This document shows, in pieces, positions 17,185 through 56,517 of a DNA stretch of 64,000 bases; position 1 is the first letter of the stretch; each line of letters begins with the position of its first letter. The stretch covers positions 12,338,001 to 12,402,000 of the forward strand of contig OZ004612.1 in assembly GCA_963924565.1 (NCBI GenBank). Direction: 5' to 3'. The stretch comes from Ascidiella aspersa. Lineage: Eukaryota. Under the pieces are notes generated by a model that did no database searches, was not told where the DNA came from, and worked only from the letters and a program-made list of their open reading frames with translations. A program made the position numbers and the translations under genes.

Positions 17185-17865
17185 AAAAGTGACGTCACAG
17201 TGGTCCGAGTTGTGACGTAGGAGCGCCTTCAGTCGTGAAAAGGGACTTGCACAGAGTCACCGTTTAGGCAAAAGTCGCCAACAATAATAATCTTTCTAGG
17301 GAGTATTTTTCTAATTCTATAAATAGATGAATCAGGTTGCACTATATAAAGACAAATTGTATGGAATTCTCGACAAGCTTTCGCACAACCGTGCTTCATC
17401 AGGTCAAAGTGTGACACAATAATAATGCATCCGTATAACGGCAAGGGATGCATGGAAAAGGCGTGGGCGTTTAGGGATCGGCCCGTTTAACGCGCTGGGC
17501 GGACGTGTTTGTAAATAAGCGTCGTAGTGCTATCGAGCCAGTCGCACCTCAAATGCGTTTCGCAAACGACGTCCGCCGACCACGGAAGAGACAGAAATAG
17601 CCGGCTCCGAAGATCGTGCTTGCTATTGTGACTTCGCGAATTTTGCGTCCAGTTCCGGGGTGACGTCAATTTCACGTGAACGTGGTCTCACGTCACGGCC
17701 CTGCCTACCTGGCGCTTTCTCGTTTTCTCTCTCTTTTATTAAGTTGTCGCGAAAAAATACATGGGAAATTCTTTAATTGGATTCCGACCTATTTTTTGCG
17801 ACCACCGTTGTGCGCGTGTTTATTAAACAACCTTTTTCCTCGACAGGTAGCCCGGCTATAAGTGT
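17185..17865 (+). promoter_or_regulatory. Probable promoter of the Spaetzle-like gene: CRE/E-box cluster
   Basis: CpG-rich patch with TGACGTCA at 17190-17197 and 17661-17668, TCACGTGA at 17672-17679 and further ACGTCA half-sites, about 0.5-1 kb upstream of the ATG at 18229. Confidence 0.4.
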
Positions 17866-18228
17866 GCGGAAGGTTAGCTGGAAATTCAGTAGTGACTTTA
17901 TTTGATATTTGGAACACGATTTGTCTTGAACTTGGGCAGAGAAGAATTATTTCGACGGACCACTTTCAAGTTGTTGGATCGGAGACTTTAGTCAACCTCA
18001 ACCAAGAAAAGACTTTCGACGACCTAATAGTCTTCGAATCTTGAAATTTGCAATTTCAATTTTCGCTGGCGATTAGAACAGTTAAAACAAGCAATTGTTT
18101 TGCCTGAAAACTGTTCGGCTTATATTTCAAGGCAAAACAAATCCGATTGGGAAAATTGACGTCGGTGACCTTTTTTTTGAAGACAAACGGAAAAGGATAT
18201 CGCAAAACGTCAAACCAAGATCGCAATC

Positions 18229-21200
18229 ATGTCAGTTGGTCACCTGATAACGTCACTGACTGTAGGCATCGTCATCAGCCTTGTTGCCACCGGCGAGGCA
18301 CTATCGCCTCTTGCAAGTAAGTGCCTCTTTCGTGCCCATATCTGGATTTATTGTAGGACGTTTTACTTTTCGTGATTTGTCAAAACAAACGGCCGGTTTT
18401 GAACCTTGAATGTTTTGTTTGTAACACTTGCGATTTAAGGGTAAATGTTTTGTTTTTTACACTTGCAATATATGTTGATCTATTGTAGTGTTTCTCAATT
18501 TTTTTCGTGGCGATTCAAATACTAAGCTTGAGTACAACAGTGAAACCTTGGCGACCCAAATCTTTTTGCTGAAATTGTTGTGAGTAAGCAAAACATAAAA
18601 CATTAGCACAAATAAAATCGAACTAGTATGATCCACGACAGCAGAATAGCGTTGAAAATCTAGCTTAACTTTCCTGCTGTTACTGGTCAGAAATTCGAAC
18701 AACATTTACGTTGCAAGGGTCAAGGTAATATTAATGTCACATATTCAGTGCAACATAGTATGAGCCATGTCCGTAGCTAAAAGCTAATGAATATTCATCA
18801 AACATTTTTACCATGTAAATTGCATGTAAATTGAGGACCACTGGTTTGAAATCTTAATAACGTAGGATCAATAAAATCTATTTATTGGGTGAAACACAGC
18901 CTTTCTTAGTATAATCATTTGTTTTAACCGGAACTGTATTTTTAAATTGTTTTTTACATCATTAATGCGGCCACATAGGTAGGGGTTTCAAAACATCATA
19001 GTTTATAACTTTTCATATAACGGTTGCATTGAGAGGTGGTGTTACACTTATCTGCAGTTACTAAAACATGCGGTAACGCTTATAATAAAGTCCGTCCCGC
19101 ATATACTGCCTTATGTTATTCAGCATTTTAGGCACATAAGTTCAAGGGTTGGTCAATTATACGTAATTTCTGTAGGGCAAAATCGCAACATTACGTCATC
19201 GATAACATGCTGGCTTGGCCTAGACAAACAATATGGTGGCAAACGTATACGTAGTAATCTTTCAAGATCATGTCAGAAAACCGTGTCTGGTTGGTAAGGG
19301 ATAAAAAGATAAAACGATTAATAAATGTCAATTTGATCAATTAACGCTGCGCTTATCGCTAGCAAAATGCCAGCGTCCGACAGCCCGCCTAAAAATGGCA
19401 AAAAAAGCGCGCGTCTTATGAGACAAAAAAATTCGTGCAGTAAATACAAAACTTGTCATCGAAAAAAGGGCCGGGTTTGAATATTTCCCAACGCGGGAAA
19501 AGGCTCAGTCCCTCATTAAAACGAGGCGGCTTCACGAAAATCGGTCGCATTTGGCCGAGCGGTTCGTCACGAAGCAGAAAAGTGAAATGCGCCGAAGATT
19601 CGTGCTAACGATTGAGGAAGACTGTCCAGGCTTGTTTCCCTTTACCCTGAATTTCGGCCGAAGTTTCAGATCTGTGTTTTTTTAGGTTTAGGGGATTTTT
19701 GTACACGACCTTTTAGGAAGGCAGATTTTGAAACACCTTAAAAATAGGAGAATTTCTCGCTGGCCTGATGTTGGTTATTTGGTTAAGGAGTGTTTTTTAG
19801 TGGTCATAAAAGTGTTTGGTTTTTAGTACAACGTAAAATTCAAATTACGTTTAAATACGCGGTACCTAACAATCTATAAGAACACTATTTTTAACCGTTG
19901 GCAATTTTAGCTTAATTCAATTTGAAAGAAAATCTATAAAAGACTAAATGTGTTTTAAAGTTTTTTTTCTACGCCCTTCTTTAAAAAGACAGTTGTAAGT
20001 GCTACATATTAAAACAAATCAACCATTATTATAAATTGTTTTTCGCACTAAAATAGAAATACACAAAAAAATATATTTTGTGATTTTACAGAGCAATTCA
20101 GTTTGCGCAGCGGGCCTATTGCATAACGGTCGCCAAAAGCCGCATAAATAACCCCTTTAAGCTGGTCGTGCAGCCCCCACCAGGAAGGTCTCGTCGTTTG
20201 TTGCAAAACAAACTGTGCGCCATATCGTTGTGCGACGTTTTCACTTTTCCGGGCGAAAAGCATAAAAAAGAAGAAGCGCGCGGATCACGATTCGACTCCC
20301 TCCGTTGGGGACAAGGGGCGTGGGTTTGCAAAACACGAACTCCGAACGCAATAAGACATCTTTGGCCTATGCGGCAAAGTAGCCGGAACATGGGCGCGTA
20401 TTTAGCACGGTTCGACTACTTCACAAACCGCGTTTTAATTGTTGTATCTAAATGCAAGCAGCACTGAAATTTGCTGCCGGAGTGGAAAGTTACGGGAGCT
20501 TCGGCGATTTTTTTCCGCGTTGCCTCTCTTGTCCTTGTTAACGGCAGCTGTGTTGAGGCTGGCGGCGGAAAAAAAGGGATTTGAAGAAAACCGATGTCGG
20601 GCGTTTGCCCAGCTCGCAAAGCCTTAATGAGCCGTTGCTCATTCAGTGAGATGAGCTTGCTCGCCGAAGGGCGATATTCGACAAAGGGTCAGGTCAAGTT
20701 AAGAGTAATTTTGTTTACTTTTCACTTAGGCGTGTACATCTGTACGTCGAAGGCAATTTAAAGCTTTGCTTTCGGAAAGATAAAATGATGAATCGCATGG
20801 GCTTAAAGACTTATATAGGCCGAGATAAACGCAATAAATGGGAGATCGCAGGCGAATTGCAAAGGCAACTCGAATCGGAAGTAAAGCACTAAGAAAATAT
20901 TTTATTGTCCAACGAGGAAGTTAAGTGCTTCAGCAAAGAACTGAAGGCTTGACTTTATATAATTCATCCAGGAAAAGTAACCAAGAGTACTTTAAAAAAA
21001 AAAATTAAATCGTTAAGAGTGTTGCGTTCAAAAACATGGACTGAACGTATTTTTGTTTTATTTTTAGTATTAATAAAAACAGAAAAACGAGAATCTTGTT
21101 TATTACAAAAAAAAAACTTGAAACCAAAGCTATTCCGCTGCTAGCTGCATAGAGTGAACTTGCACATAACCGGAAGTCAAAATTAAAAAAAAAACGCAAG

Positions 21201-24200
21201 AGCAAGAAACAAGAAGGCAACAACACGATGAAGGTCGCGACGGCGCAACTCGCAGTTTTCGGTGAGTTTTCGACGCCCAGGAGAAAATAAAAAAAAATTA
21301 CGCAACACAAGAACGAAAAGGCGTTAATCGCGCGGGGGCAATTATCGCGCAAACTTCTCCCACGAAAAACCGAAGTGGCGGCCGCAGACTGAAGGGCGCG
21401 GACTCCGCCTCTCTTTCGACTAGAATTTTGAGCACCGCGAGCATTGGGCGGAGTCTGCAGCCGGCGATTACCGCGGTTTACTGGTGCGCCAATTACGCCG
21501 CTAAAACGCCGGGTTCCTTACGAGCACTAGCCGACGACGACCCGACGGTGGCCAGTCACCTTTTGGCATAAACATTTTTTGGGCATAAAAGTGAATTAAA
21601 AACTTTTTTTTTGTTGGTATAGTTGTTAGTTTGGCAGATAATGGTTCCTTATTGAAGTCAATGTGACTCCGTTTTACCGTTACGCAGGTCACGGACGCGC
21701 GCGAGACAACAGAAATCCTTGTATATACATATAAATATATAAGACAACGGTTTAGGAAAGTAACACTCCTCATTGTAGGTTTGAGCTAAGAATATATGCA
21801 TATAAAGCAATGGCCATTTTGTCCAAGTTTATCCTACAAAATAACTGCAGTGGCACTTCCAATGTGAACAGTTTTAGCAAAATACTCGTTTAAGAAAACA
21901 TAAGAGTTTATTTTAGGCTTTTAGTTAGTCATCTATACCGGCATGAATTTCAACGCATTTTTATAAATAAAACCTCAAACGTTGTATTTTTTCGCAGCAT
22001 TGCTTCTCTTGTACCGCGGCTCGACTGGCAACCGCATGGTTCCGAGGCGTGTACTGCAGGGCCGAGCGGCGCCGGCGCCAAAGCCAAGGGGCTGGGCCGA
22101 CTGGGGCGCCTGGACGCCGTGCAGCACCGACAGCGTGGAGGGGGGCGTGCGCGCCAGAAGCCGCACTTGTCACGAGGAGCAGTGCGACAATTTGGCCGGC
22201 GACAATTACGAAGTGCAGACTTGCACGCACAAAGGTGAGACGTCTGGCCTGACAGCTTAGTTTTCAAATATACTAGATTTTTGTGCGATGTTGTGAAAAT
22301 GAGTGCGATGTTGTGAAAATGTCGAATGCGGTACAATAAAAAAATGAAAATAAGAAATTAATAAATTGTTCGAATTAAGATATACTGACGATGCCTTTGC
22401 TGGTAAAATATATACATATATATCTTTTAAGATCTTTTAATAGTTTCTGTCCTAAATTGCTAGCTTTGCTAGAGTTTTCTGCTGTTACTGATCAGGGATT
22501 AAGGTCGACATTTATCTTGCAAGGGTCAAGGTGATTTTTCATATAACATATTCAGTGCGATAAAACAAACGCAGATTTTTCTTACTCTATTGAATCGCGT
22601 TTCGTTAGTTGCGTCTTCAGACCGCACAATCGCAAAGCAATTCTGTAGTCATTTTTACTTTCGAAAAATGTCTTCTTCAATTCAGGTAAAAGTCTGCCGT
22701 ATAACTTGTGACCAAATTATTTCTTTGTATACAAGTCGAAACCTCGTCCAGTCTGAATGCGATTTTTAACCCTTGTTGCTTTTCAGCTCCCGAGGGACAA
22801 ACCCGTAACGACGCGATGAGCGACTTATGCATTAACGACCCAACAATGCGGGACTCCATGTCGTGCAAGCTATACATGGAGAACGCCACCATGGCTTACG
22901 ACATCTACTTCAGCACCGGGTACATGCTTGTTTTTAGTACATCGCCAAAATTAAAAACTGTCTAATTTGTGCAGTTTGAAAGGATACTTTGATAGCCGCC
23001 AAAAAACAACACGGGTTATATACTTATTTATAGGTGTTTTAAAAATGTCAAATTATACAACAAAATTATCAGCGGTGCTCATTCGGTCAATCAATGTAGC
23101 ACTTATTACTCACTGACTTATTTTTCAAATGAACTACAGCGGATATTGGTTCATAGAACTTCTCGGGTTTAGGCACAATTGCTTCCATTGTGTCTTGGCG
23201 AATGTAAATCGGGTTCTATATGTAAATAGGAACCAGACAGCGGCTTTAGGGCAAATTTATATGCAACCTAGAACATCGCACTTATTCAGGGGAAAAATCG
23301 AGAAGGCGTCGCCAACCGGATCAACTATTTTATTATATGGAAACGGCAATTTTAATTGAGTGCGACGAGACACAGAAAGAGCAGTCCAATTTGCATAGTT
23401 AGCAAACATAAAATTCCACTTGCGTTCGGAGCCCGTGTAACGCTGCTCAAGCGCGATTAACTGCAATATGTATGCAAAACCCTGCGCTGATCTCCCCGCC
23501 TGTCGAAGTCAAATTTGCGTTTATAAATCAAATTAAATGGCAACGCGAGTTCGAATTTCAAACAATAACAAGGAACGTTCAAACAATAACAACAAGTGAC
23601 CTTCGCAGATGCCTGCTGGCTATTTTGGACGACGTCAACTCGGAAAACGAGGCGGAATCCGACTTGGTTTTCGGGAGGGAACCGGACCCCGAACTGGGGG
23701 AGAGGGGCGCCTTGTTCCAAGGCGACCTTGTGACGTCAGACCTGAGCTCGGGAAAGTTTACGGGCGGCGCCGTCTCGCCCAATCCGGTGCCGCCGGGCCA
23801 GCGGGACCAGAACAACCGACAGGCCAACTCGGGCGTGAGCGGACTTTTCAACGTGTTAGCGACCAACAACGTGTGCACAGGTACTTTGAGATTTCTAAAA
23901 CTTGCCACGGCCGGTATAATAAACACAGAAACACAGCTAGACGAAGGTACAAAATAAATGGACTTAACCATTTTGATGCATCAATAAGGCTTGATATTTA
24001 ATTTAACATATTAAAATAAAAAGTGTCGCGTTATAGAGTAGGGTAGAACAATGGCATCAAGAAATTAAATGTCTAAAACTTAAAGTTGCCACAGCAAAAC
24101 AGCTAGGCGAACTTACAAATAAAATAGAGGTTTTTGATGGGTCAATAAGGCTTCGTGTTTGGGAGTAAAACATTAAAATGAAAAGTGTGGTGTTATAGAG

Positions 24201-26789
24201 TAGGTAGAACAACGGAATGAACAAATTAGAGTTTTTTTAACTTTTGCCATTTTTTGTCTCAGAAACGACACTATATATCAACAACAAAAATGTCAGACAA
24301 AATCTTTTTTTTTTTTAAGTGCGTTAAAACAGGTACACCTTGCATTGCATTATTAAAACATGGGCTTGCTACCATTTTCGGCCCCCGGGTATTTTTCTGA
24401 ACCTAACAGTAATTCGGGCAGAAATTACGGTAGCAACAAAGCGAGAACGAAAGCCTTAAAACGCCTCCTTTCGATTTACAGACGTTTGTCAGAGGATCAT
24501 TGTAAGCGCCACTGGTATTTCGTCATTCGGCAGTAACGCTCCTAACTCGGTCAACGGCATCGTGGCCCTACTCGCATCCAACTCTCTTTTCAGAGGAAAC
24601 ACGGCGGCCATTCAAAACGAGTACGCGAGCTGTACGCTCGAATGCAGGTGAGAACATCTCGGCAGAAGAAATAAACTTATGATTGTCACGCGAATGGAAA
24701 CGATTTTTTTCTGTTTTTTTTTAAGACTATTTTCGACAGTTGTTCGGCGCTTTTAAAATATGTTTATTTTGAATCAATTTGGATAAAGGTTTCGATTGTT
24801 TTTACTTTTAAAAATCCGTTTGCGATCTTACGGGTTATTTTAAACACAAAAAGCTGTGGTATTTTAAACATATTTCGACTGTGGGATTTTAAACAATCTT
24901 GACCAAGTTCCAACTGGTGAATTACCACAACCGTATAACAGACGATGACAATAACAAAGTACATTTTAAAATTAATCCTATAGTTCGCTTTCGAACATGA
25001 TTTCTAACTCACTTCGCGTTTTTTCCAGATTGTTCGGGCCGCAGTACGCCACCGCCCGTCTGGGTCTGGCCAGCCAGGGCCAGGACCGCGCTTTCAGCAA
25101 TGGCCTGCGTGTCACCCTTAACGTGGGGGAGGGCACCGGGTCTGGACGTCGTCGGCGCCGCCGCGCCCTGCCGCTCCTTGTTAACCGAATGCTGGAGCTG
25201 ACTCCGGAGCAATCCGAAGAGCTACAACATGCGCTTATGAACGCCGAAAATGACGACAGCGCGCCACCTAGCGTCAATGCGGGCTTAGAAGAAAAGCCGG
25301 TAGGTGGCGACGAGTTCGCTCCGGAGTCGCAAAGCGACAAAGAGGACGGTTTCCCGACTTTCAGGCGCCGCGTCAAAGCGCCGCAGCGTCTTATGGACCG
25401 AGTCGCCGCGGTCGGGAAGAAGAGAAAGCCGGTTGCTCCTCCACGTCCGGAGGAGAGGATCGTTGAAGAGCAGGAGAACGTTACCGCAGTCCTGGAGAGG
25501 GCCAAGAGGCAGGCGCCGCCAACTTCCGACCCGAGCAGCTACACGAACCCGTGCTTCGTACGCGAGGAGTTCTCCCGCAGTCCGCGGGTCACCAATGTGG
25601 ACGGAACACAGGGCGAGCTGTTCTTCTTCGAAACCAAGAGCCAGGTAATTTGACGCGCTTAAAGTGTTTGCTTATTCGTATTAAAACGTAAGGGTTTTGC
25701 GAAACAGGATTTGCAAGCTATGTGTTGTGGCAAGCCAAACGATTCTGTTGCTTGTTAGCTGAAAAGTGTCAATCAAAAGTTACACTAAGTACAAAAGCAA
25801 ATTGACAAAATTTACTAAGTTCTGTACTTTTTTACTAAGTTCTGTACCTTTTTACCAAGTTCTGTAGTTCTGTACCAGTTTAATCTTTATCATTGATGTG
25901 CAACCATAATCGTTTGTTTTCACCATTCGGATTCAGGCAAATTCTGTTAACCAAACAAAACTATGATTAAGTGTCAATCAATTGCGATAGTGTCCATCCA
26001 TTATAAATATGACTGATAAATAATCTTAGAGCGCTTGCACATAGTTCACGGTTCACAATTTGAAACAGTTCGCGCGGCGTCGAAAATATTCAAGAGAAAT
26101 AACAACGATTTCCCTTTTTCGCAGCGCTTTTTAAGGCGGCGTTGCCAGGGACCGGAAATCGTCCGCGGCTCCCTCTACCAGCCCAAGGAGACGCTGACGC
26201 AGGAGAGGACGAAGCAGCAGGCCGTTTGCAAGCAGGGATACCTAAAGCGATTCGGCCTCATGATATTCTACGACCCTGAGGTGAGCTCAATTGCCATGTA
26301 ATTAAACTAGTTTTTCAAAGTGATGTCAGTTTATTGTAGCCAATTTGGTAGCAGAAATCAATATACGATGTATTCAGTTGCGCTGTGCAGCCGTTATTGA
26401 AACATAATTACCATTCTTTTAGGATACTTAAGGGGTTATATTGCCACCTATAAATAGTACGCCACAAATATTTCTCTACACTGATACAGAAACCTATCGC
26501 GCTTTACATCTTTGAACAAACAAACCAATCGTAGATACCCATGTAGTTTTAACACGAAATCTACACAAAAATATTCAATTCGGGCTTTGCGAACTTATCT
26601 GGTTCGACATAAAATCCTTGTAAAATGGCGATAGGAACAAGTAAGGTGCTAATTTAAGCTTTTATCAAACCATAACTTTGTTGTTTGTTCCAGGGCGAGT
26701 ACGCATTCAGCGACGGATCGCGATTCTCGGTCAAACTGAGGCAGTTCAAGCTGGAATCGCACTGCGAGATCACGGTCGCGTCGCCGTAG
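18229..26789 (+). CDS. Secreted precursor, 587 aa: signal peptide, TSP1 domain, Cys-rich domain, furin sites, Spaetzle-like cystine-knot domain
   Basis: Eight GT-AG exons with consistent phase: 18229-18316, 21998-22234, 22787-22919, 23609-23880, 24482-24647, 25029-25644, 26125-26280, 26694-26789 (1764 nt, ends TAG). N-terminus MSVGHLITSLTVGIVISLVATGEA is signal-peptide-like. WADWGAWTPCS...RARSRTC...C...EVQTC is a TSP1 motif. RRRRRR and RAKR are convertase sites. The C-terminal PC...SQRFLRRRC...VCKQGY...QFKLESHC matches the Spaetzle pattern. AATAAA at ~27514. Confidence 0.85.
18640..18760. repeat. Degenerate copy of the dispersed repeat family (intron 1)
   Basis: CTGCTGTTACTGGTCAG...TTGCAAGGGTCAAGGT...CACATATTCAGTGC matches 22480-22558 and the reverse complement of 15660-15740. 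Confidence 0.6.
22425..22560. repeat. Copy of the dispersed repeat family (intron 2)
   Basis: TTGCTAGCTTTGCTAGAGTTTTCTGCTGTTACTGATCAG...CTTGCAAGGGTCAAGGTGATTT is the reverse complement of the element at 15660-15765. Confidence 0.7.
23893..24230. repeat. Degenerate two-copy tandem repeat (~165-175 bp unit) in an intron
   Basis: TCAATAAGGCTT...ATTAAAAT(A/G)AAAAGTGT..GTTATAGAGTAGG(G)TAGAACAA occurs at ~23981-24052 and again at ~24142-24212. Confidence 0.6.
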
Positions 26790-26989
26790 AACGCGCACGG
26801 CGACACACAGACAAACCTGGCGACAAACCACGCGATGGCGCAACTCGGCGCGGGCGCTGGCCAAAGAGCCGCGCCGCCGGGGAACTTTACTCGCTACATC
26901 GAATTGCACAGGCCGATTTTTGCGTACGCGCCACTTTTTGGCACACGCACAGTCGCACACGTCCCAAACGATGTCAACAATCGTGTCTT

Positions 26990-27008
26990 TCTCTCTCTCT
27001 CTCTCTCT
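26990..27008. repeat. (CT)n microsatellite in the 3' UTR
   Basis: TCTCTCTCTCTCTCTCTCT. Confidence 0.8.
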
Positions 27009-27870
27009 GTTACGTCATCACTTGCTACACGTCACTGAGGTCTTCATTCGCTTTTCTCTGATCGCGCGCGGGAGTTTCGGTAAAGGAGACGAAAATACAA
27101 TAACAGGAAAATCATTTTTACGTTGTGAACTTCGAAATGGCCATTTTTCTAAAAGTGCGATTTCTAATAGAGAAAACCACCGATTTTTTCACATATCTTG
27201 GTTATAGAAATCTCGTTCTGTTTTCGAAAATAGTTCACATGTCGTAAAATTACTGTTGATTAATATCGCATTGCACTACAATTTATACGATTGAAAACAA
27301 TTTTTTTTTCGTTTTTTTATTTAAAGGGACGTTTTTTATTGGCTATATATTTCATGAATGCTTGTAAACTTTCATCTCGCTTTTTGTGCGTTGTTATACT
27401 GCACTTTCTGCTTAACTTCTTGCCCGTATCGTTTTATGTAATTCGATTTTACTCTGTATAAAACTTCGCTTTTTCGTTGTCGTTTTTTTATGCACAGCTT
27501 TCACAACCGTTGCAATAAAACTGAAAATTGATATAAGAGAGAGTTATGATAAAAATAATTGTTCATAAAAAACATATATAGCCTATTATTTAGATTCTTC
27601 GAGTACTGTAAATTACAGCAAAACTGTCGAAAACACAGTTGTCACATTTAGGTGATTTAAATTTGAATTGTAAGTGTATAACTGTTTATACGCTGCTGTG
27701 TATGTCAAGTTAAAAATAGTACACGGATTCTACTACCAATTTTACAAAAGAACAGCGGTAACATTAACGAACGGTATTAGTTTGTACAAGCATAGGTTCT
27801 AGCGCAAACGACCCAATATGCCATGATGCTGTTGTCAAACACCGCTTGTATGTGAATTAAGGTTCTAAAC

Positions 27871-28591
27871 CAGTGGTTTTCAACCTGGGGGTCGCGACCC
27901 CCGGATGGGTCGTTTGCCTTTTCTCTGGGGGTCGCGAAGACGACGTTAAAAAATACAAATCACTATTGCTAGAATGCGAATTAATTAGCTTAAAAAATTA
28001 ACTTGTAATGATAGTGAATGTTTAAACAGTGAGCAGCCTGTGAGATAGAATATTATTTTAACAATCTAGGCTTTCTATTGAGATCCCGGTCTCAACCATA
28101 GGTAGCCTTCGGCAGTGCTTGTCAACCTTATTTGGAACAGTAAACACTTAAGTTTACTAAATAACTTTAAGCGAAAACCTAAACCTATAATTCAAGTTGC
28201 AATTGTTTATATTACACGATGTTTATTTTCAGACTCATTAAAGACAGAAATCACAAGCAAAAACTATTAACCGTTGTGACAAGAACTATATTTTTTACAT
28301 CACATTAACGATTAAACTAAAGTTTAGTCAAATAGTGATATCGAATGAAAATCGTAATGCGGCGATTAGGGGCTTAAACCGTAACTTTATAAGCTAGTAC
28401 ATATCCTTTTTTCGTTAATCCGTATAGTTTAACCAAATTTACAACAATCGGTCGAGAAATGTGATCGATTTACCAATTTAAATGTGACTCTAATAGTTCG
28501 GTCAATGTATCATTAATTCAAAATTGAGGGGTCGCGTAAGTTTTGAAAACTGGAAAAGGGGTCGCGACAACAAAAAGGTTGGGAACCACTG
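27871..28591. mobile_element. Non-autonomous hAT (Buster-type) element
   Basis: TIRs CAGTGGTTTTCAACCT / AGGTTGGGAACCACTG, subterminal GGGGTCGCG repeats, and a perfect 8-bp TSD TTCTAAAC (27863-27870 and 28592-28599). Confidence 0.92.
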
Positions 28592-31500
28592 TTCTAAACA
28601 CAAGCATATTTGTAGTATCTTTAAATCACAAACAAAACGAGCTAATACGCCGACGAAGAGAGTCTCCAGACAACGGGAGCTTTATTGTGGATTAGGTTTT
28701 GTCAGCAAAGCTGGTTTAAGAAGAATTTGCTACACAGCCACGATAGCAACAACACCGAAAGTCGATTTGTACTGCCTCTGCTTTGCTTTATCTCTCCGTC
28801 GGGGCGGCGCCTTCAATTAAAGACGCGGTCAAAGGCACAAGAAGGCGCCGAAATTCTGCTGAAACAGCGCGGAACCGTCATTATCCGATTCAAGATTAAA
28901 CCCTAAGAATGTATACAAAGGTGATAAAAGAAAATATGGTGTGCGTAGTTGTCCTGCTATCTTTTCAGAAATTTAAATTTGAACGGTACGTGGGTGGCTT
29001 CCGAGAAACTATCAGGGCAAAGTCCTGGCGACGAGAGCGACGGCGCCGACGAAAGCGTTTTAAGGACAAAAACAACTCCGTAACCTTTATTACGTGAAAT
29101 AGTGGCACACATTTAAAGCTTGGCTCATCCACATTACCAAGATTTTGCGAAACGGTGATAGGTCATTTTAACGGTGTTAAACGAAAAATGCAGAGTTCGA
29201 CAAAACTTCTAAGATTGAATTCGACAACATATAGTTAAACAACGAACCAAAGTTAAAGCCAGTGAAAATTAAGTAGCCTTGCACAAGGAACAAAATAATT
29301 GAGAATATTCCTGAAAAAGTCCAGAAAAATCGGTACACGTTTACAGAATACAATGTTCAGCGACAAATCAACGAACGAAAATACCTGTCTCCGATTAGGC
29401 TGGCAATTAAGCATGGAACCCATGGGCAGCTCGACGAAGGAAGGCTATCATTACCTGCCTTGCTTACAACTTAATCCGATTCGAATCTAACTAACATTTG
29501 TCGCGTCTTCGAAATAAAGAAGAAAAAGGCGACCTGCGTAGAACGTGATGGACTCCGGAATATCACAATCACAGCAGTGGTTTTACACCTGGCAAAACGC
29601 GCGGCGGGGCATGAGCCAATTGGCGGGTGTTGATAAAGTACCGTTGATTTTTTTCTCACGTACCTGCCTCTGTTAAACGTAAGGCAGCAACACGTGTACC
29701 AATGACGTCTAAATTTTTTTTTCTTGAAAAGTTTAAAATCTTTAAAGCTCCTATTTGTCCGGGTAAATTGTGAAATATATACTTAGAAGTCATTAGATGG
29801 CAAAAATTCAACTTGGATAACGTGAAAGCTGACGCAATGGGCAAAAGTTTCACTAAAGGTGACGTATGTGGCCACATCAAATTTTAAATTCGACCAAAAA
29901 AGAAAGAAGCAATGTTTATCCAAGCTTAAAGCGCAGATTCTATCTTGAAAGAAAGATGTTTTTTCAGGACTCAAAAAGTTAGTTTTAAAGTCTTTGCGAA
30001 GGGTTTTTAATATCGAGAAGATAGAAAAGGGCCCAAAAGCGTGACAGAAAAACGCAGCCTATGGCGCTTTTCGAAGCAGTCATGTAGCAGCAGCGCCCAT
30101 CCCACTGCTGCATTTACACCAGACTTTTCGGCGCTATCGTCAAGGCTTTTTTCTTGCTCACGGACTAAAACTCCACAACAAACACGCCACGTTGCATGCC
30201 CTTCCCGATTCCTGCAAATCCCGAAACGGGCTCGGCATCGCCAAGAACACGGCCTATGCACGGAACTGGCGTCATTTTAACCGTAACGGGGAAGCAATTT
30301 CAAGTCGATTGGCAGGAAACGTAATGTCTGTACGGTTCTTGTACCTCAGATTTCCGCTAAACGTCGTCGCCAACGTGTCAATTAACAAGTTCGAGTCGGC
30401 AGCAGTAGGCTTAAAGTCGGTACCCGTTTTCAAGTGGAAGTATTGGTGCTCGTCTGATATCAAGATGGTATCGGTGCCGATCAGATACCAAAAATATAAA
30501 GAAATTTCAGCGATGCTTTGCAATCTAACGCAGCGATTTTGCCTTGCAGGGTAAATTGATAAAAAAATATAGTATAGGTTAAAAACCGGAGGTAACTAAT
30601 CTTCTTAAATCCAAAGCATATTTTGACCTGAAAAAACAACTTTTGTTCGGCCATGTAGTGATGTCATTTGCTATCGGGCCGGATCGCGATACTTTTAGTT
30701 CAAAATATCGAATATCGATATCAAAATAAAATGTCAAGTATCGGACATCCCTTGCAAGAAGTAATAACAGTTTCGCACGAAATCACCTGATTACCCGTAT
30801 TACGTTGAAATTCTTTTTTTCCGATACGCGAAACACCAATTTCTCGTTAAAATCCAATTTCCAGCGACAGCCCTGTGATACGGTCACTTATCCGATTCCG
30901 CATTTTTATTTTACGTTTTATTCCAGTTCTTTTTTATCGTATTAAAGGAACGGCGAACGTTTTTCAAGTTTTTTCATAATGCTGCTAAATTTGAATGATA
31001 GTTTATTTACTTGTGTCCTACAGTGGAACAAATTCAATCCAATAGTTATTTAAAACCGGTACATCATTATGACTAAACATGACTTTTATATGAAACTAAT
31101 CGTGAAAGAACAAAACCTACCACATCACAATAAATAAATTTGCATGTTCGCACAGGTTATGGCTTGCACATGCCCTTATTAAACATCTCATTATAAAGAG
31201 CACGGCCCATCTAAAGGAGTGCGACCCAGCGACCGAGAAGCGCTGGTTTATGTAAAAGTCACAACAAACGCTCGACGATTGGCGCGGAAATCACCAGGTT
31301 GGTTTATAAGGGAACCAGCATGGGTATAGCACGCGACATCAGATCACATAGAGCGCTCAATCAGGTTCATTGTTCGCGAAAGGCTTAAGTCCCGTTTGTC
31401 TACCAAATGTAAAAAAGATAAACTAAATGTAAAACAACAAACGGTAGAAATCGCGCGCGGCGTAATTAGACCGAACGTATACGCACGTAAGAGCTTTGCG

Positions 31501-33787
31501 TTCCGCGTCAATCGCATGTCATGCCCCGAAAAATCATACACTGGCCGCAGTCAGCAAACACATGTCCAGACATAGGTTGAAAAAAGCTCGGATCAGTTGT
31601 GCGCAAGCAGTTTGCCTTGCAGACCACATTACAATACGGGGAATATGGACGCCATGACGGCTCAATAAAAAGACGAGGTCATAGACCTGGCCGTTTTAAG
31701 GTCGAAAATCGGCTCAGGCTTGTTTATCCGGCCGCAACACGATCTTTCGGCATTACGGCGAGCTCCGGCTCCGCAGTTTGGCAGTGACAAATGCTCGCGA
31801 AACGCTTGTAAGTGGATTATTATGAGTGCGTCGCATTTTGCAGGAGAGGTGTGCGTCGGAAACAGACTAGTTCTGCCGATCACTTGCGTTAACTTTCCTT
31901 ATTGGATCGCCAAAAGCGCCGTCCGACCTCATATAGGGCGGAGTACGCGGGTGCGGTGCCCTGTTGTGTCCACAATAATTGTTATGGGCACATTGCATAA
32001 CGCGTTGTGTTTGTTTCGTGCAGATTATCACGCCACTTCACTTTCGCGGCCAAATAATTGCGTCGTTCGTAAGACCTAACTTTGCTCGGGAAGTACTAGG
32101 TGTGGGATTGAGCGCCTGTTGCATAACGTAATTCGATTAGAACACTTATGACATGCACAGAACGTTTTATGTTCCGCGTTAAGTTTTGAGGTACACGTAC
32201 ACGTTTTTTACAATTGTTTGGACGTATAATCGTGCCGTGTTTCAATGCGAACCAATTTTCAAACTGTGGTTCACGGTCACGGAGATGCTACTCAAGCGGA
32301 TCAATATCACTCGATGTGCAATTTCGTATAATTGCAAAGCAAAAAATCGCTGAAGAATAAAATCTAGGTTCATCTGGGCAGAAAGTTGTAGCACAACGTT
32401 ATAATTTCCTTGGGTGAACCTACTAGCCACATTTTTTCAAATATTTGTTCTAAAAATGTCGTATCATTTGTGTTAAAATAATTATTTATTCCACTATGAC
32501 GACAAATTATAGCGCATAAGAAGAACAGCTCAAAAAATAAAACAAATTTCAAAATCCCGAAGGCGCATTTTTGAGGCACAAATCAAATTGATATTGGGTC
32601 AAAGCGGAACAAAATTGTCGCCAGGAAGAAAGGCATTTGCATGAACAGTCAATTAGGCCGCTGGCCAGAGTCTCCTGGACAGGATGCAGATAGAAGTGCG
32701 CATGGGGGGAATTTCCTAGGCAAACGTGATTACCAACAAAACGTCGTGTACATCAGGGGCACAACCTGTCTACTCGAGCCTTGCATAACCACGAACTGAT
32801 GGCCAACTGCGAACCCAGAATGCGAGGGTCAAAGTTCATCGCTTTCACGGAAACGAAGCAAAGTATCAGCGACAAACAAAACATGCAAAGGCGAGCGCGG
32901 TTAAAGCCCGAAAATCGGATCGTGACCCTTTTCATGGGACCCGCGTGCGGTCGACCCATTAGCGAGACGTATAGTATGGAACACTGCTCCAAAAAGTGCG
33001 AGTGTCCGCCAAATTGCGGCACGAATATACAGGCCACGTATCATTTATGAATAATAAATTAGCCTAAGGTCTGTTTTCCAAAGGACCTCGCCAACAAACC
33101 ACAGGGTTTTAAATAGATTGCAATTGTGGAACATTTAGTAGTCTAAGTTGCCATGTAAAATGACCTGGTACACTAGAAATGCAAAGCTCAATCCCTATTA
33201 ATTAGTGATTGTTTGTTTTAGTTGTTTTTTTATCGCTCAACTATCGTCGACAAACAACAAAACTTAAAATTCCTATAAAAGTCCAGTCCAAATACAAAAT
33301 TCACAAAATTGGCAAAAGTACACCGAAAGGCTTCGGAAGTCCAATATCACAGTGTTTATGCGCGTATGTGTATATGTATCTTAGAAAAAATATTTCTAAT
33401 TGAAAATAGGTTTTCCGCTATCACTTTTAACATTTATTTAATTTTTGTAAGAAAAGTTCCTACTAAACAACATTAATCTTTGCAATTCACTCCATTTTTC
33501 ACAGGAATTAGTTTTCTTCAGTTTTACTCTCACTTTAACCATGTAAGTTTTTTTATATTTTGATGCTGAACTATGAGACATCACATTCATTGTTAAATAA
33601 GACAGTTAAACTATGTAATTCCACGCATATTAAGCTAGATGACTATATCTTCTTTTAATGAATTAAAACTATATAGCACAAATCTGCATGCCTCCAACCT
33701 TCTTCAAACTATATGAAGATAATTTTGTTTGTTTCAAGGCGAACAAAATGTTACCTTCCCCTAACTCTCCCGATTTAAATCACTTAC

Positions 33788-36700
33788 CGGGCTGCCAGAT
33801 CTTAAGTTGCTGGGTAAGGTCGACCGGGTTCGTGGGTACATTGATGTCGCCAATCCCACTGATGACAGGCAGTCCCACGTCATAGCCGGGATTCCCGGAT
33901 CTCTTAACCCCTTGCTGGGTGAAGTACTGGGACTCCACCGCGAACGATTGGGTAAGTAAGTTGTTGGGTGGGATACCTATATGGCGAAAAGAAGGTATTC
34001 AAATGCATTTTCGTAGGTGTTTGGACATTTTTTTTTCTGGATCTAAAAATTTGACGCAAAAGTAATTGTTACGAATTCGCATATAACCTCTATACTCTAA
34101 AAATGTTCCGTTTTCACAACAAATTTAGTTGTCTATGTTGTTTATATTCGTTTTGAATTGTGGTAATCCAAATTTGGAAACATAAATATCAAATGCAAAC
34201 ATAATTGCTCTATTAGCAAGTCAAAGAGTAAATTACATGAATTGCAACAATACTCTGCCATTTATATATATATAATGTCCAGTGAATGTTATGCAATGAA
34301 CGAAAAACAAAGCGACAATTTGTACAATTTTAATATAAGTCGGTTATTCGTCCGCTAAATTAATATAAAAGTCGTGCTCTTCTAGTTGTTCTAGGCTTTA
34401 TAAATTTGTATGGAAATAATCGGGATTTTAATGTATTTTTTGGATCTCACCAGGCGTCTCAACAGCGCCCGTCAGCGGAACGTCGGCGACCACCACTCGC
34501 ACGTCCAGGTTGGTGACGAGGTTGCTTTCCCACGTCATCACGTACGTCACACTGGCGACAGCGTTGGAACAGTTGGAGCCGGAGATCGTCGGCGTGGGCG
34601 GTTTCGCTATAAGTTGGTCGATTGATGCTGCAAATAGAAGAAAGACAAATGTCAACATTTAAAACTAGATAGTAGTATAGGGCTAAAATCTATTATACCA
34701 TGACGTCACATTTTGTTTACATTTCCAGCTCTCAAGTAAATGTCCCGCTAAAACAGAATCTACATACCGACCCCCTTCATGTCTGAAAATTAAAAGCCTC
34801 TACGATTTATAGTTTTTCTGTAAACTCTCGACAAAAAAACGGACTGAAACAAACCAAAAAACAATCTATAACATAATTTAAAACCAAAAACAACTTTGTC
34901 TTAAAATCATCAGTACAATTCATAAAAATACGAGTACGGTCACGATTGCATCAGGCGTAATAGTTTAGAAAATAATGTTTAGTAAAATGTGAAATGCATT
35001 CGGTTCTGCTGCGAATTGCGCCAAAACGTGCAGTTTTCGTCAAAAATACAAGATTGTTTTAATTTTAATACTACCTAAGTCTGAAAACAATGTTGCAGTT
35101 TTGCACTGGGTAAATTGACACGTTCTCATTTCGTCTCGAATCGAAATTCGGATAAAATATTCACCACTCGAAACGCGAAACCGTAATTGCAAAATTAAAC
35201 CGCTCTTAAGCAGTGAAACACAAACGCGATTTCACATAAACAACGTAAACGGCCTAAATTGAGTTAAAAAGCGACACACGGGGAGCCAAGGCGAAAAACG
35301 GGAAAGCGCATTCCAGAAAAGCAATCAGAGCGCATACCACCTGTGTCACGTGATTTTACACGAGGATTTTTTTCTCCCGACGCCATCGCCGGGATTTTAC
35401 TTTTACTTGCCTGCACTGATCTGACACAGAGTCTCGCGTAGACTTGTCTTTTATTTTTGCATCGAATCGTTTTGCTGTGCGCCGAAAACGAGTTTTACTG
35501 CTCAAACCTGAAGTGGAAACGTTTTATTCCTGGTCCGTTGCTGATCTATAGTTTATTGTTGCTTTTTGCCAACCTGGAAGACCTTTTTGCTCGCTGACGA
35601 TTTTAAGGCAATTTTTTAAAAAAGTTTTATTCTTTACCGCACGCGTCTTAATTTCAAGGAAGAAAGGCTATCTGTGCTAAGGTAAGGCTGCTGAAGCAGT
35701 ATTTAACGGACCAAGGCTTTGTAAACAGTGGGTAGAATGTTTAATATATTTTTTTACGTTATAAATATTTTAATTCCGGCGTGTAAGCAAACTTTTAGGG
35801 CAGCTTTTTGAAAACAATTGCCGTGGTTAGATAAAAAACCTGTGCACATAACTCAAAAAAGCCTTTTTAATGATTTCGTTTGGGTTAGGCATAATTCCTA
35901 CATATACAAACTCTGTTTTTTTGCCAACTTTAACATTAAAACTGCAAAAATTTTCAGCGCGAATCTTCTAATTCCCTTTGAAAAAATACACGGTATCACC
36001 GCCCAATTAAATTAACTTGTAGATAAACGATAAAAGCTATCGCCCTTTCGCGGACTATTTTTCAACCATATTTTATATTTGATAACAGGCTATAGCAACA
36101 GGGGGAGTCGAACTTTTTTGCGCGAAACTATATTGTTTTTTGCAATATTGCCGTTGTATTGTGTGTCGTTACATCTTTTGAAACACGATAACGCAATGTT
36201 TAATATTTGCGCTTGACATTTTTTGCGCTCGACATCGTGACAACTCTTACAACTGCGGAATAAATGCCTTCGCAACACGTTTATCAAAATCAAACGCCTC
36301 TTCGGTTGCAGTTTAGCCAATTCGACCAAATAAAACTCAATTTTTGCGCGACCAACAACACCCTTCACTATATTCCTGTTTTCTCGGTGATATTTAATTG
36401 CAAAATGTCGAAATATTTTCATAGGGGGGGCGCAAGGCATGAGAAAATTAAGGGGGGGCGCGGCTGAAAAAAGGTTAAGAACCACTGGTTTAAACTAACA
36501 TGTTTTGTTAAATGCCCATATTTATAAAAACTTTACTAATTTATTACTATGATATTTTTAGGTGTCGACAGATGGCGATCGAAAGCCGTTTTCGGACTCG
36601 CGGCGGTTACAGTCACGTGACCCCGTACAGCCGGCAGCAGTCGAATAACGGCCGCGTGGTGTCGCACAAGCCACCGGCGCCAAGGGTCGGCGTCGGGCGC

Positions 36701-39700
36701 CAGGCACCCACTGTCTCGTACGCCTACGTGGCGGCGCAAAGGGGCCAGTCGCTAAAGGCGTCGGGAAACCACCCTTGCCCGCCCCAGACAAACTTGGGGG
36801 CGCCCCCGATGATGCCCCCGTGCTCACAGGTCCAGGGTATTCAGGTTCGTAGGCTTGGTGTTTGTTTAATGAGAGCAGAAACTCGTCCGATGAAAAGAGT
36901 CTCGTGCAAAACGAGTTCAATTAAATTAAGTACAGGGTTTGACACGGCTGCTTTCGCGATTTAAATAGACTATTTTTTACACAGCTGTTGCCAGTTTGAA
37001 TTTGCCAAATAATTCCTTTCATTGTTAAGTATAGTCACGGGATTACAAGGCCGACTGCAGAGTAAGTTGTTCGGTCGTAATGCATGCACTGTACAAGTAT
37101 ATTCGGAGTGCTTTCGAAATTAACTTTTTCAAAAACTAGCATTTTATCGTTATATTATGAATAAAGAACGTTTTTGAAAGTTATACCGTCGCGCTCATAA
37201 CCAAAAAGTCCTTTTTTACTGATTTTCAAAGTTTTTGCTTCAGTGCTCCTTGTTGCCATCTCCATGCATCAGTCATTTGTTTGCACAAGCTCATGAAAAA
37301 TGACCTAAAAATGATCCAAGTACTTTTTCTGTGGATGGTGATGGTAACAAGAAGTGACTGAATCAAAAACTTTGAAAATCATTAAAAAATGACTTAGGCA
37401 ATTTGGTTATGAGCGTGACGATACTTAACGTGCGCGAATTTTTTCTAATAATGGTTCCGGTCCAAAAACGGATAAGTACCCCGAATTTAGGTACCATAAA
37501 AATGCATGAAATAAGTGAGCGAGTGTATGATTTTGTATCCTGCATTTCGTACGTCGTTTATGTTGTTTTTGAGCTCGTGAAACTTAAAATCGAAACTGAC
37601 CAAACTTTGGTGCGCAGGCCGCTTGTGCGCCAATGACGCAGTTTAACGCCGGCGCCAACTTGACCTTCGTTGCCATGCCAATGACCCTGCCCCCTCCCAT
37701 CTGCAACCAGGCCGGGCTGCCACAGTTCGGACGGCTTTACGAGGAATTCGACAGGATGAAGGTGAGTAAAACCAGTTTGCATTAAGGCAGTGGCCGGAAA
37801 TTTTTATTTATCGCAGCTAAAAATGATCTTTCAAGATCTTTTGAAGGCCCTTACGTGAAACGAATGACGTAACAAAATTACGCCATAAAACCATTAAAAT
37901 TAAAAAAAATCTTGGGTGCAGTGCGAAAAGTTTAGTCTTGTTTAATTAAAATTTACCATTGTAGCGTTTAAATTTACATAACAAAACTCAAAATATTAAA
38001 AAAATCACCCGCGGCCCACTAAAATTGCCAAAGGCCCAGATTTGGGCCTCATCCCATTTTAATATTACTAAGGTAATACAGTTATATCCAAATTAGGCAC
38101 CTAACATGCCATACGTTTGTACTTGGTAATAGAACACGCATATTTTAAATAGTTTCTCAATCTTTCAAATAAGCTTTCACCACTTAACAGTTAAAGAGCA
38201 AGAAAGTTATGCATTTCGCCAAATAGACTAAGATTTATCAAAATGTGTCTTAAATGTTTTCCAGAACAGGGGTTGATTGTTTTTCTAGAACTATGCATTA
38301 CAACACCGCGTGCAAACAATTTGCAAACGATTTATTCTTAATCTTGTACACAGAGAAACGGCTTCGTGGTTCAACCGCGGCCACTCCAAACCCCGACACC
38401 TCCACTGCCCCCGCCCGCCACAACAATGGCCCCACCTGCACAATCAGCAGCACCAGTAGCGGGCGCAGAATTCGTAGCCCCAAGGCCGCTGTCTAGGGTC
38501 CCGAGCCCGGTTCCGCCCCCTATGGGGCAACCTCAACAACAGGGGCAGGGGCAGGGGGTTTTCCCGGCCGGCGAGGGTGTGTTCACGACGGCGATGAAGC
38601 TGTTTATGCATTCCTATATGCCAACCGCCTGTTTCGACTGCACGGTGCCGGTCGACGACTGGGGTAGAGAGGCGCAGGCCCTCATCGCCGAAGTCATGAC
38701 GGTCGGATGCGCGGGACGCGGTCAGCCTGCCAGGTTAGTTTTAAATCAGTGTTTGTCAACCTATATAGATTGCGATTGAAAAAATGATTTCTTTCCAATC
38801 CGTGCGGAGGAAAATTTTGCTTATATAAAAAATTCGACCTTATTTCTGCTAATGACAAACTGACTGTAAAATATCGAGATATCCTTACACGTAAATGACG
38901 ACGATGACTTCAAATGGAAGCAAATATTCTTTAGACTTTCCGGTCTTAGTCAAATTCGGTCATTAATAATTTATAGCTATTTAAAAAACAAGACAAAAAC
39001 GCTTTTGTGGCGAAATATTTATTTACGCTAATTTCTTCTGGTTTCGTTCGCTTACAAAAAGCTTCGGTTTAAACCTTAGTTTTTCAGTCGTGCCAAGGTG
39101 GAGAAAAACAATTAGGATTTTCAGGTCGGCTCTTCAAAAAGCGCCCGTTTTTTAACGCTGTTTTGGTCGGTCTGCTTTAGAACCAAGGCGGTGACTAGAT
39201 TTTGCTTTCGTCGAACTTTAGGCCAGTGTTTCTTAAACAGGTGAATGGTTCACCCCAGGGTGAATAAAATGTTGCAGGGGTGAATAAGGGTAAACCGTAA
39301 GAAATGGATCATAGCTTTTGCAGTAAATCGAAGTCATTTTATGCTGCTATATATATAGACGAGATAGTTTCATCACATCATGAGACAAGGGTGAATGAAA
39401 TCTGGAGATAGATGCTAGGGGTGAACAAAACTAAAAGTTTAAGAAGCATTACTTTAGGCGTTGAATAAAGTATTCAAGATCGGAAGGCCACGCGAGATAG
39501 AATACAGAGGTCCAGTGGTATATCCACCCTTTTTAACTTAACGACGCTCTATGGAAAAGTAAAAATTTATCGGCATACATGACCATAAGAAACCGCACCC
39601 CAGGAAACCACCGGCATAATACATGCCCAGGAAAAAAAACAACACATGGGACATGGGTGTAAGCAGTCCTAGCGGTCACTAAAGCTAGACCTCTAGAAAC

Positions 39701-55292: not shown

Positions 55293-56517
55293 CTAACACC
55301 GGATCATGACCTTTATCGCCCTCTGGTGTGGATCGGAAGCAGTTACGAAAGCGTCGTTTGCAGATTGCAAGTCAAACCGATGAGTGATGAGACGTTCCAC
55401 GTCGATGGCTCCCGAGGCGACCAACTCTATTGCTTCTGGATACCTTTACAACCATAGTTGGTTTGTTTGGTTATGGCAGCGATTGTAACTTTAGATGCGG
55501 TTAGGCAAATTGTTTTTTCGAATATTATACTTAAATTCACGATATTTTATGTGACGCCACATATTTTGAGCATAAACTGATTTTTCTAGGCAGTTTTGTT
55601 GAAAGACTTGCGTTTAAGGCAACGTTAACTTTTAAAAATCTTGCAAGCACTTTTAAAATGACAAACAAGTATTGATATCAATTGAAAACAAAGTCATATA
55701 TCATTTGCGGTTGAAAAAAGCAAAACTGCTTTTGGCGAGTCCGGTGTTGTTTTCCTGAACTAAACGTATAATAATATATTTAGTCTTCTGACAAAAGCGA
55801 TAAACAAATATATAAAATACGTCGTCTGGCAAAAGAGTGACGTACAAATATAAAATAGGAATTATATTACGTGTTGGCGTAACGAAATATCCCCTTGATG
55901 TCGATTTCAAAGGTTCCGGCCCGAACCATGGCGACAGGAACCTCGGCGGATCCTCTTCCGACCAGCAGAACGCAACCTCCAGGCCTACACACCTGTACAT
56001 TTGGAAAGTCAAGGGCTGTTTTACTAAGGAACGCTTAAGAGATATAAACCGCATTTGTGGCGAATTCATGTTTTGCGCACAGATTCTCCACTCTTTAGTT
56101 GAAAATTATTGTTACTAGATTACTGAATTAACAAAACCTCGTGAGAAGTTTGATCTTATAAACCTTTTTTTCTAAAAAGCAGGTTTGTAGAATGTTAGCC
56201 AATTGAGAATACACATTTTATCCGTTAACAAAGACAGCTTTTTTTTCGAAGATAAATTCCCTGAGAGACTCGTCTAAACAAATAACGTAGCTCATTTCCA
56301 ACCAAAATGGCACACTTTTATATTAACCGAATAAGAAATAAAGTAAATACCAAGAAATGCGTATAATCACTAGAAAAAATCTATTTGTGAGAAGCAAGTA
56401 AACAATATTTTTTTGCGTATATCATTCGCAATTTAAAACTGTACGTTGTACGTATCTATGACATTATGACATAGAAATCAGCATTTTCGCTTACATAAAC
56501 TCCAGTTTTTAAGCTCA
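55293..56517 (-). pseudogene. Duplicated orphan 3' end of the sorbitol dehydrogenase-like gene
   Basis: Copies of the last two exons (55992-55871, 55443-55293) plus only 23 nt (56517-56495) of the preceding exon, cut by minisatellite array B. The final acceptor is AAG here and CAG in the intact copy. Confidence 0.8.

Follow-up and report, generated by a model that had tools for sequence, protein, structure and literature searches.

A conserved ascidian gene for a likely secreted precursor with a TSP1 repeat, two furin-type sites and a possible degenerate cystine knot

We analyzed a 64,000-nucleotide stretch of the Ascidiella aspersa genome (assembly GCA_963924565.1, contig OZ004612.1, positions 12,338,001 to 12,402,000 of the forward strand; hereafter the window) and found one gene of eight exons at 18229-26789 of its + strand. 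The exons form a single open frame for a protein of 587 amino acids, which carries a predicted signal peptide, a TSP1 repeat, seven further cysteines, two furin-type sites and a cysteine-containing C-terminal domain (Table 1). All seven introns have GT..AG ends, and the G+C content at third codon positions is 0.74 as compared to a G+C content of 0.38 in the introns. A first-pass annotation, made from the sequence without database searches, had listed these features, and all of them were present on the + strand. It had named separate transcripts for the TSP1 exon and the knot exons as an outcome that would refute it. In sequencing run X3, one contig of 2394 nucleotides, extending from 18171 to 27371 at a depth of 13, carried all seven exon joints; the contig is a single record built from overlapping words and not one physical molecule. 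The library type of X3 is unrecorded, and we infer that it is RNA because the contig holds splice joints. The last exon joint was also present in two raw RNA reads of run X4, which comes from a second study. Five of the joints had a depth of zero in the deep contigs of runs X1 and X2, indicating splicing rather than a retrocopy. A single spliced gene thus contains the TSP1 exon as well as the C-terminal exons. When the Ciona orthologue described below was compared with the A. aspersa genome (308.6 Mb in 75 contigs), 69 matches were obtained, six at this locus and 63 elsewhere; the latter centered on the TSP1 stretch and none extended beyond residue 149. The gene therefore appears to be single-copy in the A. 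aspersa genome.

A search with exon 7 against 1.84 billion representative proteins gave five matches, three of which were real: a 76-residue unnamed fragment, Clavelina lepadiformis LOC143462054 (582 residues) and Ciona intestinalis LOC100179307 (479 residues). Both named orthologues are annotated as 'uncharacterized'. The other two matches, P0004 (sushi/ZP) and P0005 (a repeat protein), were unrelated and were dropped. The Ciona and Clavelina proteins have the same order of parts as the A. aspersa protein, all 15 cysteines align across the three proteins, and both R-x-[KR]-R sites lie at the same places in all three species. The orthologues differ in spacer length alone, with 20 residues in Ciona and 111 in Clavelina and A. 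aspersa. Identity to Clavelina and Ciona, respectively, was 54 and 46% for the TSP1 repeat, 53 and 44% for the C-terminal domain (residues 460-587) and 21 and 5% for the spacer, while the two middle cysteine patches were 30-36% identical to the orthologues. Word-index protein searches returned none of 2861 candidates when exon 6 was compared with longer proteins, and only the Ciona protein when the alignment (1 of 7995 scored) or the Ciona C-terminal region (1 of 133) was used; since these searches missed even Clavelina, they set no bound on the range of the family. None of ten viral contigs searched for relatives held one, and the one metagenome locus obtained (L004, from 77 stretches) was a bacterial gene. 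The relatives seen in the protein searches were ascidian proteins and the one unnamed fragment only. The first-pass annotation had not recognized this architecture from characterized proteins, and it is indeed unnamed in the databases. We found no paper on the gene identifiers or on tunicates together with Spaetzle and thrombospondin, in literature that was thin in subscription journals, and none of the literature matches listed dealt in its title or abstract with a Spaetzle or neurotrophin from ascidians. The orthologues are public but nameless, and the combination of TSP1, two sites and a C-terminal domain, as read from the sequence, was not found in print.

Hydropathy windows above 1.2 began only at residues 1-17, and the first 35 residues held the sole hydrophobic stretch of the protein. 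This agrees with the signal peptide claimed earlier, which we predict at residues 1-24 with a cut after GEA at position 18300. Behind the predicted signal peptide lies a short hydrophobic segment that is conserved, and a similar E-[AG] motif precedes the hydrophobic stretch of the orthologues. A single TSP1 repeat had also been claimed, and it scored 28.1 bits against PF00090, above the curated cut-off of 21.6, while the repeats of the orthologues scored 10.1 and 14.9 bits and fell under it. A profile search of the PDB matched the repeat to thrombospondin-1 with an E-value of 1.2e-5. The repeat keeps WxxWxxW and RxRxR and has four cysteines in all three species, short of the usual six. Relative to thrombospondin-1 it lacks the second and the sixth cysteine, which we take to form one of the three disulfide pairs of a six-cysteine TSP1 repeat.

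The middle region had been described as a novel seven-cysteine domain. The seven cysteines are there (residues 123, 135, 154, 242, 246, 294 and 298), but a single domain is not supported: they fall into two clusters (123/135/154 and 242-298) with 87 cysteine-free residues in between. This linker carries two short conserved motifs. The second cluster makes up a twin CxxxC module (C242xxxC246...C294xxxC298, residues 242-298). Structure prediction, which had been proposed as a check on the middle region, was informative for one part of it: in the predicted Ciona model, residues 231-290 were helical with a predicted local distance difference test score (pLDDT) of ~80 and were the sole confident part, while the stretch matching the linker had a pLDDT below 50 and the full model one of 46.5 overall. 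The twin CxxxC module would be compatible with antiparallel helices held by two disulfides, and going by the model the region is better described as a three-cysteine patch plus a predicted helical twin-CxxxC module. The middle modules matched no family in the Pfam, PDB, fold and feature searches. VIA-align gave generic helical matches only (best Z 5.4, root-mean-square deviation 3.8, 77 aligned), Foldseek with the Ciona model gave nothing at E <=0.001, its weak rows being headed by TSP1 entries, and among single exons compared with Pfam and the PDB only TSP1 was matched. Feature look-alike (Atlas) hits were below 0.9, and those bearing on the C-terminal domain were <=0.85 and unrelated. The N-terminal fragment as a whole (34 kDa) holds 11 cysteines, an odd number, and therefore one of them is probably used between chains.

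An RRRRRR site, an acidic and basic spacer and RAKR followed by Gln had been noted earlier, and we found them all, with both sites and the Gln conserved in all three species. The first site reads RRRRR in Clavelina and RKKR in Ciona; the second reads RHKR-Q and RVKR-Q, respectively. The A. aspersa spacer has 15 Asp/Glu against 3 Lys/Arg in its first part and 7 Asp/Glu against 12 Lys/Arg in the rest, and it holds extra basic clusters at 25363 and 25417. Variable length (20-111 residues), lack of cysteines and poor conservation are what one would expect of a spacer that is excised, and cutting by furin at both conserved basic sites is likely, judging from the sites themselves.

Table 1. Coordinates of the precursor gene and of its parts in the window (aa, amino acid residues)
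Feature	Position	Strand	Remarks
Exon 1	18229-18316	+	Start codon, predicted signal peptide; in transcript contig
Possible alternative first exon	21228-21261	+	In frame with exon 2; shorter signal-like N-terminus
Exon 2	21998-22234	+	Single TSP1 repeat
TSP1 repeat	22090-22227 (aa 61-106)	+	Pfam PF00090
Exon 3	22787-22919	+	First middle patch: Cys123, Cys135
Exon 4	23609-23880	+	Cys154 at its start, 87-aa Cys-free linker, Cys242
Exon 5	24482-24647	+	Remainder of twin CxxxC module, predicted helical
Exon 6	25029-25644	+	Both furin-type sites, spacer, start of C-terminal domain
First furin-type site, RRRRRR	25147-25164 (aa 339-344)	+	Within exon 6
Spacer	25165-25497 (111 aa)	+	Cys-free; acidic then basic
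Second furin-type site, RAKR	25498-25509 (aa 456-459)	+	Gln460 next (to 25512)
C-terminal domain	25510-26786 (128 aa)	+	Exons 6-8; Cys474, 511, 539, 580
Introns within C-terminal domain	25645-26124, 26281-26693	+	
Exons 7 and 8	26125-26280, 26694-26789	+	Rest of C-terminal domain
3' untranslated region	26790-27519	+	AATAAA at 27514; contig to 27371, X4 reads here

The C-terminal domain (14.8 kDa, isoelectric point 9.0) had been called a Spaetzle-like cytokine, and it lies past the end of the range 18229..25500 to which the first-pass annotation was attached. The spacing of its four cysteines, 36/27/40, is identical in all three species. An intron in phase 0 directly follows the conserved Gln504. 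PMC2772990 gives six knot cysteines, Pro13, Gln44, an aromatic residue at 133 and a hydrophobic one at 135 as features of Spaetzles, and Trp130 as a feature of neurotrophins. Pro13, Gln44, the aromatic and hydrophobic residues and the lack of Trp130 were found in all three species. When the cysteines were held fixed, eight of eight knot-family positions were present in each species, among them the Pro, the Gln and the aromatic and hydrophobic residues given as diagnostic in PMC2772990; the offsets from the cysteines were assumed, and the window for the Pro was widened by one, as it lay one residue later than assumed. In 200,000 shuffles for each species, eight positions were never reached and seven were reached once, once and three times. 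This count overstates the case, since the test was designed with the sequence in view and on related species, and it is suggestive only. The domain has no cysteine between its second and third, nor two residues after the last, and CxC is absent. Its four cysteines would correspond to knot positions I, II, IV and V, paired I-IV (Cys474-Cys539) and II-V (Cys511-Cys580), with III and VI lost together. Spz6 likewise lacks two conserved cysteines (PMC2586362), and T1C IL-17 knots lack cysteines 3 and 6 with their four strands still linked, as described in PMC11087794, which also reports the T1 types as lost in tunicates. The case for kinship of the domain, which rests on motif positions chosen after the fact and partly assumed, is suggestive, and we consider it fairly probable that the domain is a knot relative of one branch or another.

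Besides the post hoc nature of the motif test, several results weigh against a place among the neurotrophins and Spaetzles. The domain has four cysteines and not the six of the Spaetzle knot, Pro136 and the extra dimer cysteine of Spaetzles are replaced by Glu and His in all three species, and a ninth knot feature (N/D-hydrophobic-x-G) was present in only one of the three. The two hallmarks of neurotrophins (PF00243), Trp130 and six cysteines, are both missing, and basic clusters inside the domain (RRRC, residues 508-511) are not conserved in Ciona. Pfam gave no Spaetzle or NGF match for the full orthologues and no family at E <=10 for any of five rows of the domain alignment, in a search where HMMER filters discard weak matches. 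A sequence search of the PDB at E <=10 returned six sequences, none of them Spaetzle, NGF or another knot. Genome scans with PF16077 and PF00243 bypassed this locus; they were run exon by exon and miss split domains. The exon-wise scans gave no match above cut-off in the A. aspersa genome for NGF, Spaetzle or the p75 membrane model. An AlphaFold model of the domain from a seven-row alignment reached a pLDDT of 40 and a predicted template modeling score of 0.27, and at this low confidence it placed a helix at the expected strand 3; searches with it found no knot family (Foldseek; VIA-align best Z 3.2), being uninformative at such a pLDDT. What remains of the earlier Spaetzle-like claim is a degenerate relative at most, as the six-cysteine definition and the Pfam model both failed. 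The protein fails Spaetzle and neurotrophin membership, but by analogy it probably works like them.

We compared the precursor with known systems. CCN proteins consist of IGFBP, vWC, TSP1 and C-terminal knot domains, and they resemble our protein in having TSP1 together with a C-terminal domain of the knot type within a single secreted chain. Unlike in CCN proteins, ~350 residues and two furin sites separate TSP1 from the last domain here, and Pfam found no IGFBP, vWC or Cys_knot in the full orthologues, only weak TSP1-type matches. The layout of signal peptide, pro-region, basic site and C-terminal ligand matches that of the Spaetzle/neurotrophin superfamily at the sequence level only. As in Spaetzle (PF16077, especially the furin-cleaved Spz2/DNT1 and Spz5/DNT2), a signal peptide, a long pro-region and a basic site precede a C-terminal cysteine domain, with Pro after Cys I, Gln before Cys II and aromatic and hydrophobic residues before Cys V at assumed offsets (features from PMC2772990). 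Unlike Spaetzle, it has four cysteines instead of six, neither dimer cysteine nor Pro136, no Pfam match, and a pro-region with TSP1 and cysteine modules, and its host is a deuterostome, a group for which PMC2772990 reports no Spz genes. With neurotrophins it shares a C-terminal domain that would be released by furin and the conserved Gln before Cys II, and like Sp-NT2 and Daphnia NT, as described in the same source (PMC2772990), it is encoded by a multi-exon gene. It differs from them in lacking Trp130, Cys III and Cys VI and a Pfam match, and the Cys III-IV consensus motif given in that source was not visible in the three-species alignment. BMP2/BMP4 and BMP7 offer a functional analogy, having two conserved sites before the C-terminal ligand and a pro-region that acts as chaperone and tether (PMC11735993); our protein differs from BMPs in its longer spacer, its cysteine pattern and its lack of a TGF-beta Pfam match.

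The explanation that we favor, and to which we give an even chance, is that the gene encodes a secreted 587-residue ascidian precursor in which two furin cuts free a probable two-disulfide neurotrophin/Spaetzle relative, the N-terminal part being its pro-region. That this single-copy gene is an overlooked tunicate member of the superfamily, and that ascidians did not lose the superfamily, could equally be right or wrong. As a part of that proposal, loss of the III-VI disulfide would have hidden the member from profile searches, and a matrix-tethering pro-region of TSP1 and a helical twin-CxxxC module would have been built onto it; here too the balance is level. Under the favored explanation the precursor would be secreted and cut twice by furin, so that the spacer is dropped and the 15-kDa C-terminal domain is freed. 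The 34-kDa N-terminal fragment would serve as the pro-region, aiding the folding of the ligand and holding it after the first cut, and the complex may be anchored to matrix, or to a second copy, through TSP1 and the one unpaired cysteine. When and where the ligand is released would depend on the second cut, or on removal of the spacer, as with the two sites of BMP2/BMP4, and the conserved Gln would probably cyclize to pyroglutamate. Spz1 keeps its pro-domain bound once it has been cleaved, and furin cuts Spz2 and Spz5 (PMC9427763), while BMP4 undergoes two-site processing and is released only after the second cut, the pro-domain of BMP7 binds matrix, and the cut pro-region of BMP4/BMP7 stays with the ligand (PMC11735993). 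Members of the Spaetzle/neurotrophin superfamily bind Toll, Trk or p75 receptors as dimers. The A. aspersa genome holds seven TIR matches, one of which, on the - strand at L030:832-4035 (G000:C3), is an LRR and TIR gene of the Toll-like receptor type with 1067 amino acids in a single frame.

The first-pass annotation had proposed that the precursor could release two independent products with separate functions, one a matrix-binding protein with TSP1 and cysteines and the other a cytokine. By the standard of pro-regions the N-terminal part is well conserved, as the identities of its TSP1 repeat and cysteine patches indicate, both sites flank a disposable spacer, and the even number of cysteines in the C-terminal domain means that a tether is not needed. 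On the other hand, the middle region matched no known family, the cysteine count of the N-terminal fragment is odd, and known knot precursors, including Spz1, BMP4 and BMP7, hold pro-region and ligand together once cut (PMC9427763, PMC11735993). The proposal is unsupported as stated and is one option among several, which we regard as quite unlikely; by analogy, the N-terminal part likely acts as a chaperone and matrix tether rather than as one of two independent signals. An odd cysteine in the N-terminal fragment (11 of 15 in total) and a cysteine-free spacer of 20 to 111 residues would also suit a two-chain protein, in which the spacer is removed in the manner of a C-peptide and disulfide-joined chains have a structural or adhesive role in matrix or tunic. 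Insulin and complement C3 are the comparisons for such a protein. Two internal knot pairs would account for all four C-terminal cysteines, however, leaving none for an inter-chain bond, and we find this arrangement improbable.

The remaining alternatives concern the nature of the C-terminal domain. It could be an ascidian-specific four-cysteine beta domain whose likeness to Spaetzle is coincidental, and the failure of every profile search to tie it to a knot family, the unrelated feature look-alikes and the restriction of its relatives to ascidians and one fragment all speak for this. It is nevertheless unlikely in our view, given the eight motif positions present in each of the three species and a C-terminal position behind a conserved furin site, as in knot ligands; in addition, profiles built from three species only make for weak searches. 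A place among the knot ligands of the IL-17/Trunk branch (type T1C) would suit the inferred loss of the 3/6 disulfide, as T1C IL-17s lack the same cysteine pair (PMC11087794). Our precursor is much longer than T1C IL-17s. The A. aspersa genome has seven IL-17 matches over cut-off, and the domain shows no sequence likeness to the IL-17s of this genome: hhalign against their exons, which are of the T2 type and partial, gave a probability of 0.3%, and Pfam IL17 (PF06083) was not matched. Moreover, the Cys I-II spacing of 36 exceeds that of IL-17/Trunk, and the Ciona orthologue is absent from the 12 Ciona rows of the PMC11087794 table. An origin in this branch is thus highly improbable.

PMC2772990 and PMC2586362 state that Ciona lacks neurotrophin signaling and that deuterostomes have yielded no Spaetzle genes; these statements on gene loss date from 2008-2009, and later surveys may differ. 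If the favored explanation is true, a conserved ascidian degenerate-knot precursor would fill a gap in the sister group of vertebrates and would supply a candidate ligand for Toll-like receptors, or others, of ascidians, with a pro-region architecture that had no match in the searches made. The presence of the gene in Ciona (LOC100179307), a tractable model, makes this directly testable. If the knot assignment is wrong, the gene would still encode a conserved, likely secreted precursor that has two sites and two cysteine modules without a family assignment.

A few further observations were made at and around the locus. The N-terminus of Clavelina isoform X2 is swapped at about the same point as the possible alternative first exon, for which we found no joint in the RNA runs and no BLAST match. 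The few X4 reads near exon 1 (17600-18950) had a mate orientation opposite to that of the reads over the final exons, a hint of antisense or head-to-head transcription or else of repeats. Short high-copy repeats of very high contig depth lie in introns and flanks at ~17330-17410, 18737-18757, 22370-22537, 25877-25950 and 27865-27945. Two genome matches were rejected as candidates: the best one to PF16077 (L001) was below cut-off, in a stop-containing frame without knot features, and the one to PF00243 (L005) was an unrelated long frame. Exons of a neighboring gene on the - strand (30332-34640), three of which had no Pfam support as single exons, carry an SGNPGY motif, presumably that of Tectonic proteins. 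Several proline-rich exon-like frames at 36512-42645 on the + strand belong to another gene, and four of them had no Pfam match. Long Pro/Thr/Ser/Lys-rich tandem-repeat frames with the same tail, open on both strands, occupy 52309-54297 and 56513-57640 (+), the former without a Pfam match. A zinc-binding dehydrogenase exon (PF00107, E 3.9e-6, below cut-off) lies at 59788-60150 on the - strand, and a C-terminal fragment of a hAT transposase (PF05699, E 0.009, below cut-off) at 65-565 on the + strand. Elsewhere in the genome, an uninterrupted frame of 3380 amino acids (L014; G000:C3, ~33.86 Mb) holds several TSP1-like matches.

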